A stretch of DNA of 64,000 nt. Origin: a virus (taxonomy: Duplodnaviria > Caudoviricetes). Made by a program: the position numbers and the translations under genes. Below are positions 46,298-52,763 of the stretch, piece after piece (positions within the stretch are counted from its first letter, which is position 1; every line of letters starts with the position of its first letter). The notes beneath the pieces are model-generated. The model saw nothing but the letters and a program-made list of their open reading frames with translations. It was not told where the DNA came from and ran no database searches. The stretch is from positions 1 to 64,000 of IMG/VR virus record IMGVR_UViG_3300027991_000080. One strand, 5' to 3'.

Positions 46298-47380
46298 GTG
46301 CTTTACCATGTACGACCTGGCGACAGTCCGGCGAGTATCGCGGCACGGGATGACATGGCCGGGTGTCCGAAGTGCGCGATCGATCTGATTCGAGCGAATC
46401 CGCACAAGCCAGTAGTGAGGCACCAGAACGGTTTTGTGACGTTCGCGTCGCTTGTTCCGGGGGAGGTGCTCAAGATCCCCGAGAAGTGGCACAACGGCGA
46501 GCTCGACACGCGCCCTCGCGCATACTTCGCGGCGCTTCCGTACACGGATGGCGTGACACCGTCTTCATTGGGCCTCGCCGCCGCTGGTGTGCTGAATGAC
46601 TACGCCGATCTTGATACGGCAACCATTCTCATCGGCACTCTGGCAACGATCGACGATCCGTCTTTCGTACAGATGGTCCCGGAGGCGACTGCACTCATTG
46701 ACGGATCTGTGGCAACTGCTGACTCGAGCTCGAATCCAGTTGCTGTCGCGCGCGCGAAAGATGTACACGCGGCTACGGCCGCCGCGAGGGCCAGTGCCGC
46801 CGTCATGGCCGCAGCCCTCGCCGCGGGCGACCAATCGGCGGCGATGGGAGCTCGACTCGCTGCGCAGAACTCTCTGTCTGCGGCGATTGGTAGCGTGCGA
46901 TTGGCTTTGCAGGCGGCGTACTCCGGGGAACCCGCAGCAACGATGCCTTCCACTCTTCCCCAGATCCCTCCAGCGGTGCTTGCTGCTGCCCAAGCTGCTG
47001 CAGCAGCGATCAAAACAGATCCGAATTACTGCGCAAATATCGGCAACGCAGGCAGCGCCGTCAACGCTGCCGTGCATGCCTTCAAAACGGCCTGGAACGC
47101 CACTCAGACTCCAAAAATTCCGGTCAACACGGGCAACTACGAACAAGAGACAGCGGAAATTCTGGCGGACGTTCTCGGGGGCGCTCCGTTGCCGTGCGAT
47201 CCGGTCGAGATCACTCCAACTCCGACTGCGCCAAAGCCGCCTCCTTATTCTCCGCCTCCATTCGTGGCATCGAATGCGCCGAGCGGCGAAAAGATCAGCA
47301 CAGGCTCCGTCACTTTGATCGCTCTACTGGCCGCAAGCGCCGCTGGTGGCGCCTACTACCTCGTGAAACAACGCACATGA
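46298..47380 (+). CDS. LysM protein with Ala-rich helix, PG-binding-like segment and C-terminal anchor
   Basis: YHVRPGDSPASIA...LIRANP...PGEVLKIP; AVHAFKTAWN...GNYEQET; GEKISTG+TM+KQR. Confidence 0.8.
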   Translation: MLYHVRPGDSPASIAARDDMAGCPKCAIDLIRANPHKPVVRHQNGFVTFASLVPGEVLKIPEKWHNGELDTRPRAYFAALPYTDGVTPSSLGLAAAGVLNDYADLDTATILIGTLATIDDPSFVQMVPEATALIDGSVATADSSSNPVAVARAKDVHAATAAARASAAVMAAALAAGDQSAAMGARLAAQNSLSAAIGSVRLALQAAYSGEPAATMPSTLPQIPPAVLAAAQAAAAAIKTDPNYCANIGNAGSAVNAAVHAFKTAWNATQTPKIPVNTGNYEQETAEILADVLGGAPLPCDPVEITPTPTAPKPPPYSPPPFVASNAPSGEKISTGSVTLIALLAASAAGGAYYLVKQRT

Positions 47381-48027
47381 TCGACAGACCCATCGACGGA
47401 GTTCAAACAGACCAACGGGTGCACCCTGCCGGAAAGAAGGGGGCTACGGTTTCTCTGCGCGAGGTTGCCGAGCGAGCATGGAAAGCCCGCATGAGTCCGC
47501 GCCTGCGCGCGTGGGTTACTCAGGAGCTCGACAAGGCCAAGATGGTAAACGGAACGCATCGACAAAAGGGTCAGGTGATCCTGGATGCGTTTCGAAAAAA
47601 GGTTCCGTACGTCGCCGATCCTGTGATGGGCGAGTTCATGGCAAAGCCGGAACAGGTACTCTGTCTCGACGAGGGTGGTCTTTGTATCGTCGGAGCAGAC
47701 TGCGACGAAGTGTCAATCACGCTTGCCGCAGCAATGATGTCGATCGGAATCGACGCGATGATCATTGGTTCGAGTCATCGAGAACCCTACGACACGCCGA
47801 CCCACGTGTTCATGGCGTTCAAAGACGAGCTCGACAAATGGGTGAAAATGGACGGCACGACGAAGCTTCCAGCAGGGAAGACTCCTCCTCACATGCGCGA
47901 GTTTTGGTACGAGCCTGGTGAGCAGGCGAAGGACAGCGGTGAGGGGGATTTCGTCGGCATGAGCGGTCCTGGAACTCTCAGCGGACCTCCACAACGATTC
48001 GATCTGCGGTATCCGGGAATACGGTAG
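47377..48027 (+). CDS. transglutaminase-like cysteine enzyme
   Basis: ADCDE (Cys), THVF (His), KMDGT (Asp) triad; YVADP. Confidence 0.8.
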   Translation: MIDRPIDGVQTDQRVHPAGKKGATVSLREVAERAWKARMSPRLRAWVTQELDKAKMVNGTHRQKGQVILDAFRKKVPYVADPVMGEFMAKPEQVLCLDEGGLCIVGADCDEVSITLAAAMMSIGIDAMIIGSSHREPYDTPTHVFMAFKDELDKWVKMDGTTKLPAGKTPPHMREFWYEPGEQAKDSGEGDFVGMSGPGTLSGPPQRFDLRYPGIR

Positions 48028-48414
48028 TAAGGCGATCGTTGTACGATCGTATGTCGCGTGTGTCACACGGTACGTGAATCTTTTGGCCTAATTTTGGCCT
48101 CAATTCACGGTGTAGGTGTATCGCGCCAGATTCTCGTAACTATTTGTTGTTACTTGAGTTTAGTGGCGTATCTGCGCAGTGCTCGAGGCGTATAGCTGTG
48201 CACTATTTCGGGATCTGTCAACGGTCATGCGTTGGGCTTGTATTGACTCGTGAGATCCGAATTTGAAAGGATTGCTAACTGTAACCCCCGTGACATGGGC
48301 CTTTACGACGATCGGTTGGCGGATCTCGAAGAGAAGCGACGCGGAGTTGCTAGCTCGAGGCCACGGAACCAAATGGGGAGTCGTTACGCCCGGGTAATCC
48401 GTCCAGAGGAAAGC

Positions 48415-49740
48415 ATGGCAAAGACCAAAGAAGCTCGCCGCCGCAAGAAGCGCTCCACCAAGAAGTCGAGCAAGGGTCGCCGTCGTCGGCGAGTTCGTGC
48501 TGCAGTCGCAGCTCCTCGGCGTCGCAAGCGGAGGGCGCGCAAGGTTCGCGCCCGTAGGAAGCGGGCAATGGTCATGGAGGCACCGAAGCGTCGTCGTCGG
48601 CGCCGCAAGGTGCGCGCTGTTCAAGCGTGGCACGGAAATCCGGCCGGCCATCGTCGGGCCGCCAAGAAGGGCCACGCGCGTCGTCGTCGCAAGAGCGGTC
48701 GTCGTCGGTCGCGCAGGACGCGCGAGATGCGCGAGACGATGGTGATGGCGCCTCGCCGGCGTCGTCGGCGTCGCAAGATGCGAGCGAGCGTCGTGAAGTC
48801 GTCGCGTCGTCGCCGGAGTCGTCGGATGCGTTCGAGCATCATGCGCGCCGGTCGCGGCGGGTCGATGGGAGCCGCGGAGCTGATGCTGGCGGTGTTCTCC
48901 GGTGGCATCGGGTTCGTGGTCGCGGACGGCGTGGATCGCCTGCTCGCGACGTACAACCCCGCGGGCACCGAAGCGCCGAAGGACAAGTTCACGTCGAGCG
49001 GTGCCGGCACTCTTGCCAACACCCTCAACGTGGCGGCGAAGCCGAACGTCATGCGCATCGGTGCCGGCGTCGGTATGACGGCGGTCCCTGCGTTCGCGTC
49101 GATGTACGTGCGGAACCCGTACATGCGTGCCTCGCTCGAGGGTATCACCGTCGGTGCGGGAGTCTCGCTCTTCAAGACGCTGTGGAACAACCTGCTCATG
49201 CCGCTTCTGTTGCCGAAGGACCAGAGCGTTCCCTCGTTGCAGAAGAACGTGATCGCCCGCCTGTACCCTGCGGAGGTGGCTGCGGCCATCAACCTCAAGC
49301 AGGGCGCGATGTCGGGTCCGGGTGCGCTGTCTGGCGCTCCTCAGCAGCTCGGCATGGGAGCTCCGGACGTTGGTCCGTTCGCGCTCGCTGGCGACTCGCC
49401 GTATCCGGACGCTGCTCAGGCGCTTCGGGCACAGGCCGGCGTGCACGATCAGTTCCCCTCCGTGCAGAACGTTTGGGGAACAGGTGGGCCCGGGAGCGAT
49501 TACCCGACAGCGGCTCAGGTGATCGCGCGCAACGCCGGCATGGCGGGTCCGGCCGGTCACGGCAACCCAGGTCAACCGGGCCTGAGCTGGACGCCTGGCC
49601 CTCCGTCGGACATCGGTCCCGGACCGCAAGCGGCCCCTCACAAGGATCCGTCGTGCGGGTGCATCGGGGAGAACAACCGGTTCCTCGGATTCATCGGCGA
49701 CAAGCAAGAAGAGGATCAGCTCTTCGTGATCAAGAGCTGA
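48415..49740 (+). CDS. protamine-like Arg-rich membrane protein (candidate core/DNA-condensing protein)
   Basis: GAGGA RBS; ~145 aa of poly-Arg blocks followed by hydrophobic Gly-rich helices. Confidence 0.8.
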   Translation: MAKTKEARRRKKRSTKKSSKGRRRRRVRAAVAAPRRRKRRARKVRARRKRAMVMEAPKRRRRRRKVRAVQAWHGNPAGHRRAAKKGHARRRRKSGRRRSRRTREMRETMVMAPRRRRRRRKMRASVVKSSRRRRSRRMRSSIMRAGRGGSMGAAELMLAVFSGGIGFVVADGVDRLLATYNPAGTEAPKDKFTSSGAGTLANTLNVAAKPNVMRIGAGVGMTAVPAFASMYVRNPYMRASLEGITVGAGVSLFKTLWNNLLMPLLLPKDQSVPSLQKNVIARLYPAEVAAAINLKQGAMSGPGALSGAPQQLGMGAPDVGPFALAGDSPYPDAAQALRAQAGVHDQFPSVQNVWGTGGPGSDYPTAAQVIARNAGMAGPAGHGNPGQPGLSWTPGPPSDIGPGPQAAPHKDPSCGCIGENNRFLGFIGDKQEEDQLFVIKS

Positions 49741-49845
49741 TCGACACACAACAATCGCGCCGCGGATAGTCCGCGGCGCAAAGTCAACAAAGAATCGGAA
49801 AAAGCTCGCGGCGGACCAGGAAACGGCGAGCAACGGAGACGGAAC

Positions 49846-51177
49846 ATGGCAGCAATGAGCAAGGTGAAGGAAACGGCGATTCTCGGGAAGCGCAACTCGA
49901 GGTTCGGTGACTCGCGCGACGTGAAGCGCGTTCAGTTCGGTCTCGGTGAGTCGCCGGGAACGGTTGGGGCTGGCGAGAAGTGCTTGCGCTGCTCGTTCGG
50001 CAACATCCCCGTGATCGAAGAGGTCGTGTGGACGATTCCTCTCCCGCTCACGGCGGACGAGGCTCTTTCGACCCTCGGTGACACGGTGAACCTTCTCTCG
50101 GGTTCCTCGAGCGTGCCCGGAGTGGCGTCGATCGACTCGACGTTCCTCATCAACGGCATTCTCCAGACGGACATCCTTGCTCAGGGTATCGGTGTGCACG
50201 TGTTCCATGAGCCGATGAGCTTCTCAACGATCGGCAACTCGTTCGCGGCTCCCGATGCGAGCGCGACTCCCCCTCCGTCTCCGGACGTGTGGACCGACAA
50301 CGATCTGTTCAACGGTGCGCTCGGTGGACAGTTCGCTGGAGCGAGCCCCACCGCGGACACTGCCCCAGCTCCGGCGGTGTTCGAGTTCGGTGTCGACGTC
50401 TGGCGTGCAGGCTGGAACTTCATCAACGCCTACCAGTTCCAGTGGAAGACGTCGCAGCGCGAACTCGTGTTGAACGAGCTCGCTGCAGACGTCTCCTACT
50501 TCGGTTCGTTCGCGGACGCAGAAGCGGCAGGAACGAGCGAGGTAGCGATCGCGGAGTTCGTGGCCGCCGTCAACGCGACGTACCGCTCGAAGGGTTCGAA
50601 TACGGTGTTCCTCCCGGCGAACTTCCGCCGCGTGGGCAGCGTGAACAGCACGTCGGCGACGAGCAACGTCGGCGTGTTCCACCCGACGAGGGACTTCGAC
50701 CTCGCTCCGGTGACCTGGGGTGGTCTCCGGTGGCAGGGGTACGGCTGCCGCGGGCAGATGTATCGGCAGGTCGAGAGCCCGTGCTTCCTCGAGCGCGGGA
50801 TCCCTATCGGCATGCAGTTCATCGTCCAGGACGCCGTGCACCAGGCGCTCATGCTCCAGGCCGTCACGATCAACAACGGCGCGCTCGGTTCGAACGTTTC
50901 TCCGGACGAGAACTTCACCTGCTTCACCCAGGTAGGCGGAGCGGCCGGGCAAGGCGTTCCGACCGCTGGAGCGATCGCTTCCGGCGCGAACAACGTCATG
51001 CTGGAGCAGACTCTCGACGCGACTCCGGTGCTCATCCAGCAGTCGGTCAACCAGTGCCGTCAGATCTACAAGGGCGGCATCCTCAAGCTCGCGATCAAGA
51101 TCAAGGGCTGGGAAATGCCGGGCGGTTGGAAGGCGTGGTGCGAGAGCACCGGCGTCATCGGGCCGTCGAAGGGCTGA
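49846..51177 (+). CDS. candidate major capsid protein (single jelly-roll with insertions)
   Basis: Beta-rich; FLINGILQTDILAQGIGVHV and LKLAIKIKGWE strand patterns; extreme codon bias; followed by a strong terminator. Confidence 0.6.
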   Translation: MAAMSKVKETAILGKRNSRFGDSRDVKRVQFGLGESPGTVGAGEKCLRCSFGNIPVIEEVVWTIPLPLTADEALSTLGDTVNLLSGSSSVPGVASIDSTFLINGILQTDILAQGIGVHVFHEPMSFSTIGNSFAAPDASATPPPSPDVWTDNDLFNGALGGQFAGASPTADTAPAPAVFEFGVDVWRAGWNFINAYQFQWKTSQRELVLNELAADVSYFGSFADAEAAGTSEVAIAEFVAAVNATYRSKGSNTVFLPANFRRVGSVNSTSATSNVGVFHPTRDFDLAPVTWGGLRWQGYGCRGQMYRQVESPCFLERGIPIGMQFIVQDAVHQALMLQAVTINNGALGSNVSPDENFTCFTQVGGAAGQGVPTAGAIASGANNVMLEQTLDATPVLIQQSVNQCRQIYKGGILKLAIKIKGWEMPGGWKAWCESTGVIGPSKG

Positions 51178-51198
51178 TTCGTAGTCCCCCGTAAAGAC

Positions 51199-51242
51199 AC
51201 GAGCGGCGTGGCGGATAGCGTCGCGCCGCTCGTTTCGTTTTC
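51199..51242 (+). terminator. Rho-independent terminator
   Basis: ACGAGCGGCG...CGCCGCTCGT stem followed by TTTCGTTTT. Confidence 0.85.
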
Positions 51243-51266
51243 AGGCATCTAGAAGGAGTTCCGCGC

Positions 51267-51872
51267 ATGCAGCCCCGTGACCACGATGTGAAAAACCTCG
51301 CCCTGTACGCGCCGCGGGTCGCGTACGCAATGGTCGTCGGCGTTCCCCGCGTACCAGTCGTGCTCGACATTCCGATCCAGTTCTCCTCGAGCACCGTCAA
51401 TGCTCCGCCGGTTGTGCAGAGCTTTCAGAACAACCTGACACAGGACACGCTGATCGAGCGCGTCTCGTACGCTCTGTCGCAGCCGAACAGTTTTCCCGGA
51501 TCGCCGTTCCAGAGCCTCTACTTCAACCAGCTCAAGCAGAGCGGGCGCACCGGAATCGGAATTCGAATGGACGTGTACGGCGGTCCAAAATACGCCATCA
51601 ACGATTCGTTCACCGATCTCGGTAACCTCGCCGACGTGTTCGCTGTGACGTGGCCTCAGGGATGGCCGCTCTACAAGCAGAGCAACGTCAAGGTCGCCGC
51701 GATTCTCACCGACACCCCGACTAGCGTTCCGTACAGCGCAACGATCTCGTTTCTCGGGTGGCAGTTCAACGACAAAACGATCGACGACATGTCCGATCAG
51801 GACGCTCGTGCCGCTCTCCGAAAGATCGGGATCGACACGCCCGATCTGATGAACCTGCTCCCGCAGAGATGA
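51267..51872 (+). CDS. candidate small capsid protein (single jelly-roll)
   Basis: Alternating strand patterns LTQDTLIERVSY, WPLYKQSNVKV, ATISFLGWQF. Confidence 0.55.
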   Translation: MQPRDHDVKNLALYAPRVAYAMVVGVPRVPVVLDIPIQFSSSTVNAPPVVQSFQNNLTQDTLIERVSYALSQPNSFPGSPFQSLYFNQLKQSGRTGIGIRMDVYGGPKYAINDSFTDLGNLADVFAVTWPQGWPLYKQSNVKVAAILTDTPTSVPYSATISFLGWQFNDKTIDDMSDQDARAALRKIGIDTPDLMNLLPQR

Positions 51873-51875
51873 TCC

Positions 51876-52763
51876 ATGAGCTCCCGCACCGAAAATGTGA
51901 TCCGGCTGCAGAAGCACCCTGGTGGGGTGGCAGCCGGATTGCGCTCGGTGCTCGACAACGGTCGCGTTGAGCTCATCACGAACGGACCCAACTCCGAGTT
52001 TCAGTTTATCGGAAGCGATCCCTGGAACACGAACGCCTACACGGGCCTAGTGGTTCCTGCTGCCCCGAGCTCTTCAATCGGCGATGCTCGGTATTTGTTC
52101 ATGCTCGCTCGCGCGAGCTTCGGAACTGGCGAGCAGAGTTCTGACAATCTCGGGGTAAGGCTAGTCGGAATCCGCCAGTACGCGGAGCTCGTTGCCCGCA
52201 TCTCGGCAGATGATGATGACGTGTTCGCCAGCGGCCCTCCCACCGGATCGACTGTCACGTTGCGTAAGGAGATCACTTCTCCGCTTTGGCATCCGTTCGA
52301 CGGAGACATCTCGTGGCACGTGATGATCATCAACAAGGTCCAGCGTGACACGCGAAACCCTGCGAACGCGGACGGGTTCATCTACCAGGACGCGCTTTCT
52401 CCGGCGCTGATCTATCAGACTGCCGCTCCGTACGCGCCGCCCAACGGCGGACGTCCGTGGGGCACCCCGCTCGCGGCGTCTCTCGGCAACATTCACGAGC
52501 TCCGGTATCCGTGGCGGACCACCAGGAGTGAGCGCGTTCTCGATATCCCGCTCCCGGTTCCGTGTGACGTTGCGCTCTTCGCGAGCGTACGGCAAAACGA
52601 TCCGACCCTGAACCCGGTATTTGCTGGAGGGGTAACATCGAACCAGCTCGCGTCACTCTCTCCTGAGGATCAGTTCGTAGCGGCATGGCCGGCGTTCGCT
52701 CAGTACGGGACGATCGCTGGAGCGCTCGTGTTCGACCAAAACATCGGAGAAGATGTGCCATGA
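51876..52763 (+). CDS. beta-rich structural protein (penton/minor capsid candidate)
   Basis: VRLVGIRQYAEL, LDIPLPVPCDVALFASVRQ, YGTIAGALVF; follows the two capsid candidates. Confidence 0.5.
   Translation: MSSRTENVIRLQKHPGGVAAGLRSVLDNGRVELITNGPNSEFQFIGSDPWNTNAYTGLVVPAAPSSSIGDARYLFMLARASFGTGEQSSDNLGVRLVGIRQYAELVARISADDDDVFASGPPTGSTVTLRKEITSPLWHPFDGDISWHVMIINKVQRDTRNPANADGFIYQDALSPALIYQTAAPYAPPNGGRPWGTPLAASLGNIHELRYPWRTTRSERVLDIPLPVPCDVALFASVRQNDPTLNPVFAGGVTSNQLASLSPEDQFVAAWPAFAQYGTIAGALVFDQNIGEDVP

Follow-up and report, generated by a model that had tools for sequence, protein, structure and literature searches.

The capsids of P23-77 (VP16 and VP17) and SH1 (VP4 and VP7) are formed from a small and a large single jelly-roll protein. 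In P23-77, the relevant genes run in the order ORF13 (the ATPase), VP16 (small), and VP17 (large). The known prokaryotic viruses with jelly-roll capsids are small, and to our knowledge, all large bacterial dsDNA viruses that have been characterised so far are tailed viruses with the HK97 fold and terminase motors. Prokaryotic viruses with double jelly-roll capsid proteins have genomes under 20 kb (PMC8812541). In SPV1 (Sulfolobus polyhedral virus 1, a member of the Portogloboviridae), the shell is built from the single-jelly-roll proteins VP4 (hexameric) and VP10 (pentameric) over a lipid layer, the DNA core is condensed by protein, and there is no packaging ATPase (PMC8459092, PMC8812541).

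We studied three consecutive genes in a 64,000-nucleotide window (positions 1 to 64,000 of IMG/VR record IMGVR_UViG_3300027991_000080) of a 76.7-kb viral genome with 55 genes. An earlier note on this window had read their products as a set of single-jelly-roll capsid proteins: a large major capsid protein (MCP), a small MCP, and a penton. We propose that the trio is the module for the outer shell of a dsDNA virus that infects soil bacteria, has no tail, probably has an icosahedral particle with a membrane, and is known from its genes alone, and we give this proposal a probability of about 65%. We found no description of this lineage in the literature that we searched.

Layout, conservation, and expression signals of the three genes

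All three open reading frames are real genes, and all are on the + strand: gene 1 (49846..51177, 443 aa), whose product is a candidate MCP; gene 2 (51267..51872, 201 aa), which encodes a second conserved protein of the putative shell module; and gene 3 (51876..52763, 295 aa), which encodes the third. Clustering of homologues at 90% identity gave over 400 clusters for gene 1, over 500 for gene 2, and 334 representatives for gene 3, so these genes are far beyond what chance would give. The trio is syntenic in 39 of 39 IMG/VR loci (about 30 distinct contigs) and in remote contigs, which together make over 30 distinct contigs of 55-127 kb, and synteny holds down to about 27-30% identity. The syntenic block is wider than the trio, which is preceded by the genes for a cysteine enzyme and an Arg-rich protein. 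Genes 1 and 2 adjoin and are about equally conserved in every clade: the best 120 of the more than 400 gene 1 clusters are 69-95% identical, and the best 120 of the more than 500 gene 2 clusters are 73-86% identical. Gene 3 is more divergent than either. About 20 soil metagenome DNA sequencing runs contain the lineage; there is no RNA run among those listed.

Sequence and profile searches of Pfam, PHROGs, and the PDB gave no match for any of the three families, and a tblastn search with gene 1 as the query found none in 50,697 phage records. Profile-profile comparison (hhalign) showed no similarity among the three families (E = 0.5 for gene 1 versus gene 2). No transmembrane segment is predicted in genes 1, 2, or 3. 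The earlier note had stated that the first two proteins end in similar strands. Both motifs are present (LAIKIKGWE in gene 1, residues 415-423; ATISFLGWQ in gene 2, residues 157-165), and the first is near the end of its protein, with 20 residues after it, but the second is 36 residues from the end.

The 443-aa gene had been said to have the strongest codon bias, and it does rank first among the 55 genes of the 76.7-kb genome (Nc = 34.7 and GC3 = 0.83, versus genome medians of 48.9 and 0.68 across the 55 genes). Gene 2 ranks 10th of 55. The strong terminator that had been reported after gene 1 is also there: an intrinsic-terminator-like hairpin (51199..51233, + strand) starts 22 nt past the stop and has 15 pairs (11 of them G-C), a 5-nt loop, and then a T-rich run. 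Its loop contains GGATAG. A second hairpin, rich in G+C and likewise with GGATAG in its loop, lies between the Arg-rich gene and gene 1 (49757..49780) and, as read from the sequence, has no T-run on the + strand. The ribosome-binding sites are GGAGA before gene 1 and a strong AAGGAG before gene 2. The start of gene 3 follows the stop of gene 2 by 3 nt, and, going by this layout, gene 3 is translationally coupled to gene 2.

A terminator that separates gene 1 from gene 2 points to a higher output of the large protein than of the small one. Genes 2 and 3 would be a coupled pair downstream of the terminator and are therefore probably expressed in smaller amounts. The expression signals and conservation of gene 1 fit a major capsid protein, and no other gene in the genome has MCP-like conservation or expression signals.

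Predicted fold of the 443-aa protein

Using an alignment of 112 sequences that reached down to about 30% identity, AlphaFold2 gave a model of the gene 1 product with pLDDT = 84.1 and pTM = 0.82. (A model from a shallow alignment, with 54 homologues that were all over 67% identical, had a pLDDT of 45 and was discarded.) Residues 1-40 form an N-terminal arm that is basic and disordered and contains a near-invariant G-x-G (32-34); this arm probably points inward. The jelly-roll-like core of the model consists of one group of strands at about 56-134 and another at about 385-424. Between them is a conserved alpha/beta insertion of about 250 residues (about 135-385), with about 11 strands and three helices. 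The loops at about 161-180 and about 361-380 are prone to indels. The claim that the proteins are beta-rich holds for the model of gene 1, in which strands take up about 33% and helices 20%; for genes 2 and 3, crude alignment-averaged propensities give more strand than helix.

We compared the model to 48,161 representative PDB chains. All of the Z-scores were at or below 6.3, which is under the search tool's typical best chance score (7-8), and just 13 of the 48,161 chains reached Z ≥ 5. The top ten were the capsid proteins of PBCV-1 and EhV-201, the Orf virus D13-like scaffold, HHIV-2, the Faustovirus MCP, SPV1, HCIV-1, peptidylglycine hydroxylase (twice), and an exo-arabinofuranosidase, which we take to be a member of DUF2961/GH172. 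Peptidylglycine hydroxylase (PHM) and DUF2961 are cellular kin of the capsid jelly-rolls (PMC8812541). The Helvetiavirae proteins matched over 118-139 residues (HHIV-2, Z = 5.6; HCIV-1, Z = 5.3; P23-77 VP17 and VP16, Z = 4.5), and two SPV1 chains had Z = 5.5 (149 residues aligned) and 5.3. A second look gave the STIV MCP (Z = 6.0), PRD1 P3 (5.9), and vaccinia D13 (5.7); overall, SPV1, PRD1, STIV, and PBCV-1 were at 4.8-6.3.

The core's top structural matches are almost exclusively capsid jelly-rolls and their cellular kin, at weak Z-scores (4.5-6.3). General beta-sandwich domains (discoidin, C1q, and carbohydrate-binding modules) come next, at 4.3-4.9. Because the scores are modest and these general domains are close behind, the enrichment suggests the fold class and does not prove it. 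Even between bona fide relatives among single-jelly-roll capsid proteins, Z goes no higher than 7.5 (PMC8812541). Foldseek searches with the model against the PDB and BFVD found no match at E ≤ 0.001; the weaker rows from both databases were mostly jelly-roll capsid proteins. The earlier note had named an HK97 fold as one outcome that would speak against its proposal, and the structural matches found for gene 1 include no HK97 capsid fold, although this absence proves nothing. Overall, the model suggests a capsid-type jelly-roll core. For gene 1, the idea of a jelly-roll capsid set is supported by a model with a pLDDT of 84 and by neighbours that include the proteins that had been named, or their close kin.

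The matches cover 110-150 residues that are scattered over positions 40-430 of the model, and each aligns to one contiguous jelly-roll in the target. Because scattered residues align with a contiguous jelly-roll, we think that the core is split by the insertion. This agrees with the previous description of gene 1 as an unusually long version with insertions. We propose that the N- and C-terminal strands of gene 1 would come together as one jelly-roll-type beta-sandwich that tiles the shell, with the highly conserved domain inserted between the core strands.

The insertion might instead be a second jelly-roll, which would make gene 1 a double jelly-roll MCP with an unusual nested topology and PRD1-like trimeric capsomers. 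The top matches are mostly to one barrel of PBCV-1, EhV, D13, Faustovirus, STIV, or PRD1; the insertion has about the 11 strands and three helices described above; and 443 aa is a typical length for a double jelly-roll MCP. However, no alignment is longer than about 150 residues, none of the listed matches (with the full-length model as the query) lies within 135-385 alone, and the known tandem order is absent. We consider the nested arrangement unlikely.

Proposed accessory shell proteins, packaging, and the search for another capsid

Crude propensities for gene 2 predict about eight strands (a beta part of 165 residues) and then a helical tail that is about 35 residues long, and from its sequence we consider it either a small capsid partner or a candidate penton. 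The one set of named neighbours that the ESM Atlas gave for the gene 2 family, PM2 P2_N/P2_C clusters with a score of 0.76, is at chance level and had no backing from Pfam or PDB profile searches, so we rejected it. We also rejected an ARAGORN tRNA-Arg call within gene 2, on the opposite strand, as a chance hit. In gene 3, the loop at 112-128 is probably surface-exposed, because a lectin-like domain (Laminin_G_3) takes its place in one relative (P0267). Gene 3 is a candidate vertex or adaptor protein. In our proposal, the products of genes 2 and 3 would be accessory shell components and probably less abundant than gene 1; one of them probably makes up the five-fold vertices (penton), and the other would either act as a partner within the capsomers or serve as an adaptor to the numerous fibre proteins that are encoded downstream.

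These roles could be divided in two ways. As in the sphaerolipoviruses, genes 1 and 2 might be the large and small single-jelly-roll MCPs of hetero-hexameric, pseudo-hexagonal capsomers, with gene 3 as the penton. The matches of the gene 1 core, with its inserted "tower-like" domain, to HHIV-2, HCIV-1, and VP17/VP16 are consistent with this arrangement, as are the adjacency and equal conservation of genes 1 and 2, a size and strand count for gene 2 that suit a small jelly-roll, and the faster evolution and exposed loop of gene 3. But the order is large-small rather than the ATPase-small-large of P23-77, the terminator between genes 1 and 2 speaks against having at least as much of the small protein as of the large one, gene 1 has no profile similarity to gene 2 or to VP16/VP17, and no ATPase of the FtsK-HerA, A32, or P23-77 type was found (FtsK in this genome; the others in this genome and four relatives). 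We view this arrangement as possible but doubtful.

Alternatively, and with the odds similarly against it, gene 1 alone might form the six-fold capsomers, as in SPV1 or PRD1, with gene 2 as a pentameric vertex and gene 3 as a peripentonal or fibre-adaptor minor capsid protein. The terminator and the codon bias imply that the gene 1 product is far more plentiful than those of genes 2 and 3, an SPV1 capsid chain aligns over 149 residues at Z = 5.5, and the beta part of gene 2, at 165 residues, has the size of a penton. Against this, gene 2 is conserved as strongly as the MCP candidate, which is not required of a penton.

Two genes just upstream of the trio accompany it in all clades. The first (47377..48027, + strand) encodes a transglutaminase-core-like enzyme that is a candidate maturation protease or cross-linker: its Pfam Transglut_core hit has E = 1.4e-4, just under the cut-off, and C108, H142, and D158 are invariant in 26 homologues. 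We also looked at G-[LIMF]-G as a candidate protease site; its occurrences are too few to judge. The second (48250..49740, + strand) encodes the Arg-rich protein, which is 50% R+K over residues 56-200, has one predicted transmembrane helix (206-224), and has a Gly/Pro/Ala-rich C-terminal half. Remote relatives have a gene of 487-523 aa at this position. The module also encodes several predicted single-pass membrane proteins. The Arg-rich protein is a candidate for a DNA-condensing, membrane-anchored core protein. The DNA would probably not be pumped in by an ATPase but more likely be condensed by this protein, and the shell would assemble around the condensed core, as in SPV1.

To look for other capsids and for packaging motors, we searched records that are 95-100% complete. 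Terminase_6N, the one terminase family searched in six frames, had no match in six genomes (this genome and five relatives). In this genome alone, we found no match to Phage_capsid (PF05065, also in six frames) or to FtsK_SpoIIIE (PF01580), and in this genome and four relatives, we found neither Pox_A32 (PF04665) nor a homologue of the P23-77 ORF13 ATPase. These are profile searches, which very divergent ATPases may escape. The only open reading frames with a Walker A motif are helicases and one AAA_24 protein. None of the module ORFs that were scanned had a Pfam or PHROG match to a head, portal, or tail protein.

It is quite improbable, in our view, that the trio is not a shell at all but a set of conserved beta-sandwich proteins of the virion or cell surface (adhesin, lectin, or enzyme-like), with the true capsid elsewhere, possibly a very divergent HK97-type protein with a divergent terminase. 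Z-scores in the chance range, the matches to carbohydrate-binding and C1q-like domains, and the IMG/VR-derived labels of the relatives, which lean towards Uroviricota, would be consistent with this. However, the lack of Terminase_6N in six nearly complete genomes, of an HK97 capsid match in this genome, and of head or tail matches in the module argues against it, as does the lack of any other gene with MCP-like signals. Phage-like replication genes are present and can account for the Uroviricota labels.

Peptidoglycan-binding domains, a GH25 lysozyme, and a tyrosine integrase are bacterial hallmarks in this genome. A scan of genome contigs found the lineage in just four short contigs from metagenome-assembled genomes (binned as Binatia, Chloroflexota, and Polyangiaceae), which is too weak to name a host.

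More broadly, and at somewhat less than even odds, we suggest that these genomes represent an undescribed, globally distributed lineage, at family rank or well above, of tailless, membrane-containing bacterial viruses of 55-127 kb that have a nested-domain jelly-roll capsid and motorless packaging via the Arg-rich protein. It would be a bacterial, five-fold larger counterpart of the portogloboviruses that is hidden under "Uroviricota" labels. If this is true, then a common soil lineage of 55-127 kb with a jelly-roll shell and no recognisable motor breaks the small-genome pattern, metagenomic classifiers misfile such genomes, and the debate over the origins of the Helvetiavirae, the Portogloboviridae, and the double jelly-roll viruses gains a missing bacterial branch. 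With its near-invariant sequence, the 443-aa protein offers a ready-made marker with which to find, count, and eventually isolate these viruses.

Comparison with known systems

Of the hallmarks of the Caudoviricetes, an HK97-fold MCP did not turn up among the matches of gene 1 or, as a PF05065 match, in this genome, and there is no Terminase_6N in the six genomes and no portal, head, or tail match in the module ORFs scanned. The double jelly-roll proteins of the Bamfordvirae (PRD1 P3, STIV B345, PBCV-1 Vp54, and vaccinia D13), together with PHM and DUF2961/GH172, are the best neighbours of the core barrel (Z = 5.4-6.3), and the double jelly-roll MCPs are similar in size to the gene 1 product. 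However, only one barrel aligns to gene 1 (over 114-148 residues), the predicted topology of gene 1 is split around an insert rather than tandem, and no A32/FtsK ATPase was found here.

Like the Helvetiavirae, this virus has adjacent genes for a large and a small beta-rich protein (the small one judged by crude propensity), the large protein is predicted to be a jelly-roll base with an extra domain (Z = 4.5-5.6), and an internal membrane is likely. The differences are that no FtsK-HerA ATPase was found in profile searches, which a divergent one could escape; that the order is cysteine enzyme, Arg-rich protein, large, small, and third protein, with large and small reversed relative to P23-77; that the genomes are 4-8 times larger; and that the layout of the operon would yield more of the large protein than of the small one. 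Also, hhalign against VP16/VP17 gave a probability of 0.1-0.2%, which would not be surprising even between truly distant relatives.

SPV1 is an archaeal virus with a circular 20-kb genome and small capsid proteins, whereas the viruses described here have bacterial hallmarks, genomes of 55-127 kb, and an MCP candidate that carries a 250-residue insertion and has no sequence similarity to SPV1. On the other hand, this MCP candidate has a predicted jelly-roll core that an SPV1 chain matches at Z = 5.5 over 149 residues, and, as far as can be told from the genes, an Arg-rich predicted membrane protein adjoins it and there is no detectable ATPase. An SPV1-like plan accounts for the design of the operon, the missing ATPase, and the Arg-rich protein no worse than a P23-77-like plan does.

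A conserved gene trio and its expression signals

Three consecutive ORFs on the plus strand, encoding proteins of 443, 201 and 295 aa (genes 1-3; 49846-51177, 51267-51872 and 51876-52763), are present exactly as an earlier note had described them. Codon bias is stronger in gene 1 than in any other of the genome's 55 genes (Nc 34.7, GC3 0.83; medians 48.9 and 0.68), in line with the note, which ranked it first within the window. The strong terminator that the note placed behind gene 1 is there as well, as a hairpin of 15 pairs (51199-51233) that runs into a T-rich tail. The ribosome-binding sites are GGAGA for gene 1 and AAGGAG for gene 2, and gene 3 starts only 3 nt past the gene 2 stop. From this operon design, we predict more gene 1 product than gene 2 product, and no less gene 2 product than gene 3 product. 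The similar terminal strands that had been noted in genes 1 and 2 do exist, but profile-profile comparison found no homology among the three families.

The trio is adjacent and in unchanged order in 39 of 39 IMG/VR loci. These come from about 30 distinct contigs, which are 55-127 kb long and in some cases carry direct terminal repeats. Gene 1 has over 400 homologue clusters and gene 2 over 500; among the best 120 listed for each, identities are 69-95% for gene 1 (on contigs of up to 139 kb) and 73-86% for gene 2. Gene 3 is more divergent: most of its 334 representatives (50% clustering) are 30-40% identical. Adjacency and order are kept even in remote contigs where gene 3 is just 27-30% identical, in the pattern 487-523 aa, 391-441 aa, 200-214 aa and 264-289 aa. 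A block of five genes is conserved in all clades (a transglutaminase-core-like enzyme, an Arg-rich membrane protein and genes 1-3). Rapid turnover is seen in the flanking fibre and lysis genes. Sequence methods did not link this module to any described family, and our literature searches found no description of such a module or lineage.

Two G+C-rich hairpins bracket gene 1 (49757-49780 and 51199-51233). Their loops share GGATAG, and only the downstream one has a T-run behind it; together they may be an element for RNA stability or processing. Antisense ORFs of 682 aa (48160-50208, minus strand) and 184 aa (50496-51050, minus strand) overlap the Arg-rich gene and gene 1. In both, the third codon positions fall on those of the sense genes (GC3 0.86), which makes these ORFs a product of GC3 bias rather than genes. 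ARAGORN's 97-nt tRNA-Arg(TCG) at 51759-51855 (minus strand) lies inside conserved coding sequence of gene 2 and is most likely a false positive.

Predicted fold of the 443-aa protein

With a shallow alignment, the AF2 model of gene 1 had a pLDDT of 45. A deeper alignment of 112 sequences, with homologues down to about 30% identity from the related loci and a second protein search, gave a confident model (pLDDT 84.1, pTM 0.82). Foldseek found no significant match for this model in PDB or BFVD; the weak rows were mostly jelly-roll capsid proteins. In an exhaustive VIA-align search of 48,161 chains, only 13 chains had Z ≥ 5, which is modest, given that according to the tool chance alone often yields a best score of 7-8. 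The top ten were the capsid proteins of PBCV-1 and EhV-201 (6.3), two entries for peptidylglycine hydroxylase (5.7 and 5.2), the D13-like scaffold of Orf virus (5.7), HHIV-2 (5.6), the Faustovirus major capsid protein (MCP) and Sulfolobus polyhedral virus 1 (SPV1; both 5.5), HCIV-1 (5.3), and an exo-arabinofuranosidase, which we take to be a DUF2961/GH172 member (5.0). FLiP (4.9), PRD1 P3 (4.8), and P23-77 VP17 and VP16 (4.5) fell below these. A second look at the model gave the STIV MCP (6.0), PRD1 P3 (5.9) and vaccinia D13 (5.7). The matches to the predicted structure are vertical jelly-roll capsid proteins and cellular proteins, and no HK97 capsid protein appeared among them. Peptidylglycine hydroxylase and the DUF2961 family are cellular relatives of such capsid proteins (PMC8812541). 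Our case for the fold class is the striking enrichment of this list, and no individual Z-score carries it. As a yardstick, the accepted relatives SPV1 VP4 and P23-77 VP17 match each other with a Z of just 7.5 (PMC8812541).

In each match, one contiguous barrel of the target aligns with 110-150 residues that are dispersed across model positions 40-430, so we place the core sandwich in the N-terminal (about 56-134) and C-terminal (about 385-424) strands. Between them is an insert of about 250 residues of mixed alpha/beta structure. It is as conserved as the core; variable or indel-prone stretches are confined to residues 1-30, 161-180 and 361-380. The proposal that gene 1 is a long jelly-roll large MCP with insertions agrees with this jelly-roll-like core and long insert, although the Z-scores are modest. 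Reading the same model as a nested double jelly-roll seems improbable to us.

A hydrophobic-G-L-G motif is near-invariant in the disordered N-terminal arm (residues 31-34; 49937-49948), and G-L-G or G-F-G recurs where distant gene 2 homologues are extended at the N-terminus (loci L028, L030 and L032-L034). These motifs, in few cases so far, may be processing sites. C46, C49, C301, C313 and C432 are invariant in the near clade of the putative capsid protein; distant homologues (L028, L030 and a partial gene at L001:3-782) have Cys-rich tails (C-x-C-x-C) in place of this genome's C-terminal tail. Stabilisation by disulfides or metal is possible. In another related locus, a 148-aa ORF (L031:11068-11514, plus strand) lies 4 kb downstream of the gene 1 homologue and contains a 41-residue near-copy of the segment around GG-x-RxxG...GIPIG and a 16-residue piece from elsewhere in the same protein. 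It looks like the remnant of a capsid-gene fragment.

Genes 2 and 3 and the conserved upstream genes

Crude alignment-averaged propensities suggest about eight strands in gene 2, with a helical tail behind them, and a gene 3 protein rich in strands and loops. In P0267, a relative of gene 3, a 217-residue insert (residues 80-296) with a Laminin_G_3/ConA-like lectin domain replaces a 17-residue acidic loop (residues 112-128 in this genome), which argues that this loop is solvent-exposed. The gene 2 tail (residues 170-201; 51774-51872) has weak LEM-domain matches in 7 of 37 family members (best E 0.033) and may be a small helix-loop-helix module. A language-model lead to PM2 P2 for gene 2 was dropped, as it scored at chance level and was not confirmed.

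Directly upstream of gene 1 is the 496-aa Arg-rich protein (48250-49740, plus strand). Residues 56-200 (145 residues) are 50% R+K, and a transmembrane helix (206-224) is followed by a Gly/Pro/Ala-rich half. We considered this ORF as a portal and ruled it out, as it is an Arg-rich protein with one transmembrane helix. In remote relatives, this position is always held by a gene of 487-523 aa. The transglutaminase-core-like protein (47377-48027, plus strand) is kept with the trio in all clades, and its Cys108, His142 and Asp158 are invariant in 26 homologues. It is a candidate maturation protease or cross-linking enzyme.

Genome setting, particle and comparison with known viruses

The sequence covers positions 1 to 64,000 of a 76,740-bp IMG/VR record that is classed as a provirus (95% complete by CheckV), with a tyrosine integrase at its end (75661-76740). 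Genes for phage-like replication lie in the left half of the genome (prim-pol, three helicases, ThyX, ParB, a PD-(D/E)XK nuclease and an AAA_24 ATPase). Pfam and PHROGs matches are rare in the right half, a block of genes in one orientation; they comprise peptidoglycan-binding domains, a GH25 lysozyme, collagen-repeat proteins, glycosyl- and methyl-transferases, and the integrase. A 529-aa ORF was ruled out as a terminase, as it is a Pro/Gln-rich low-complexity protein.

We ran six-frame profile searches for packaging and tailed-phage families on records that are 95-100% complete. Terminase_6N gave no hit in this genome or in five relatives (G001-G005, each 100% complete; three have direct terminal repeats), and neither Phage_capsid nor FtsK_SpoIIIE was found in this genome. 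Pox_A32 gave no hit in this genome and four relatives, and a homologue of the P23-77 packaging ATPase was not found in these five records either. Of the Walker-A ORFs, only four could be given a function, and each of these encodes a replication or recombination enzyme.

The evidence best fits a particle without a tail, with a shell that would be tiled by the 443-aa jelly-roll protein. An internal membrane is suggested by several single-pass membrane proteins encoded in the vicinity of gene 1. The Arg-rich, membrane-anchored protein could condense the DNA, and a role in processing or cross-linking shell components is possible for the conserved Cys-His-Asp enzyme. Two plans for the shell seem about equally likely. 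In a P23-77/HCIV-1-like plan, which was the view of the earlier note, large and small jelly-rolls form a hetero-capsomer and gene 3 is the penton; that genes 1 and 2 are equally conserved and constantly adjacent favours this plan. In an SPV1-like plan, one MCP forms six-fold capsomers, gene 2 is the penton and gene 3 is an adaptor for the fibre proteins. The terminator after gene 1, the lack of a detected packaging ATPase and the Arg-rich core protein (compare PMC8459092) favour the latter.

The module would work much like those of jelly-roll membrane-containing viruses. It departs from the Helvetiavirae (the P23-77, HCIV-1, HHIV-2 and SH1 group) in two defining respects, the lack of a detected packaging ATPase and the gene order, and from the Portogloboviridae, the family of SPV1, in host domain and genome size. 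It probably marks a new high-rank virus lineage.
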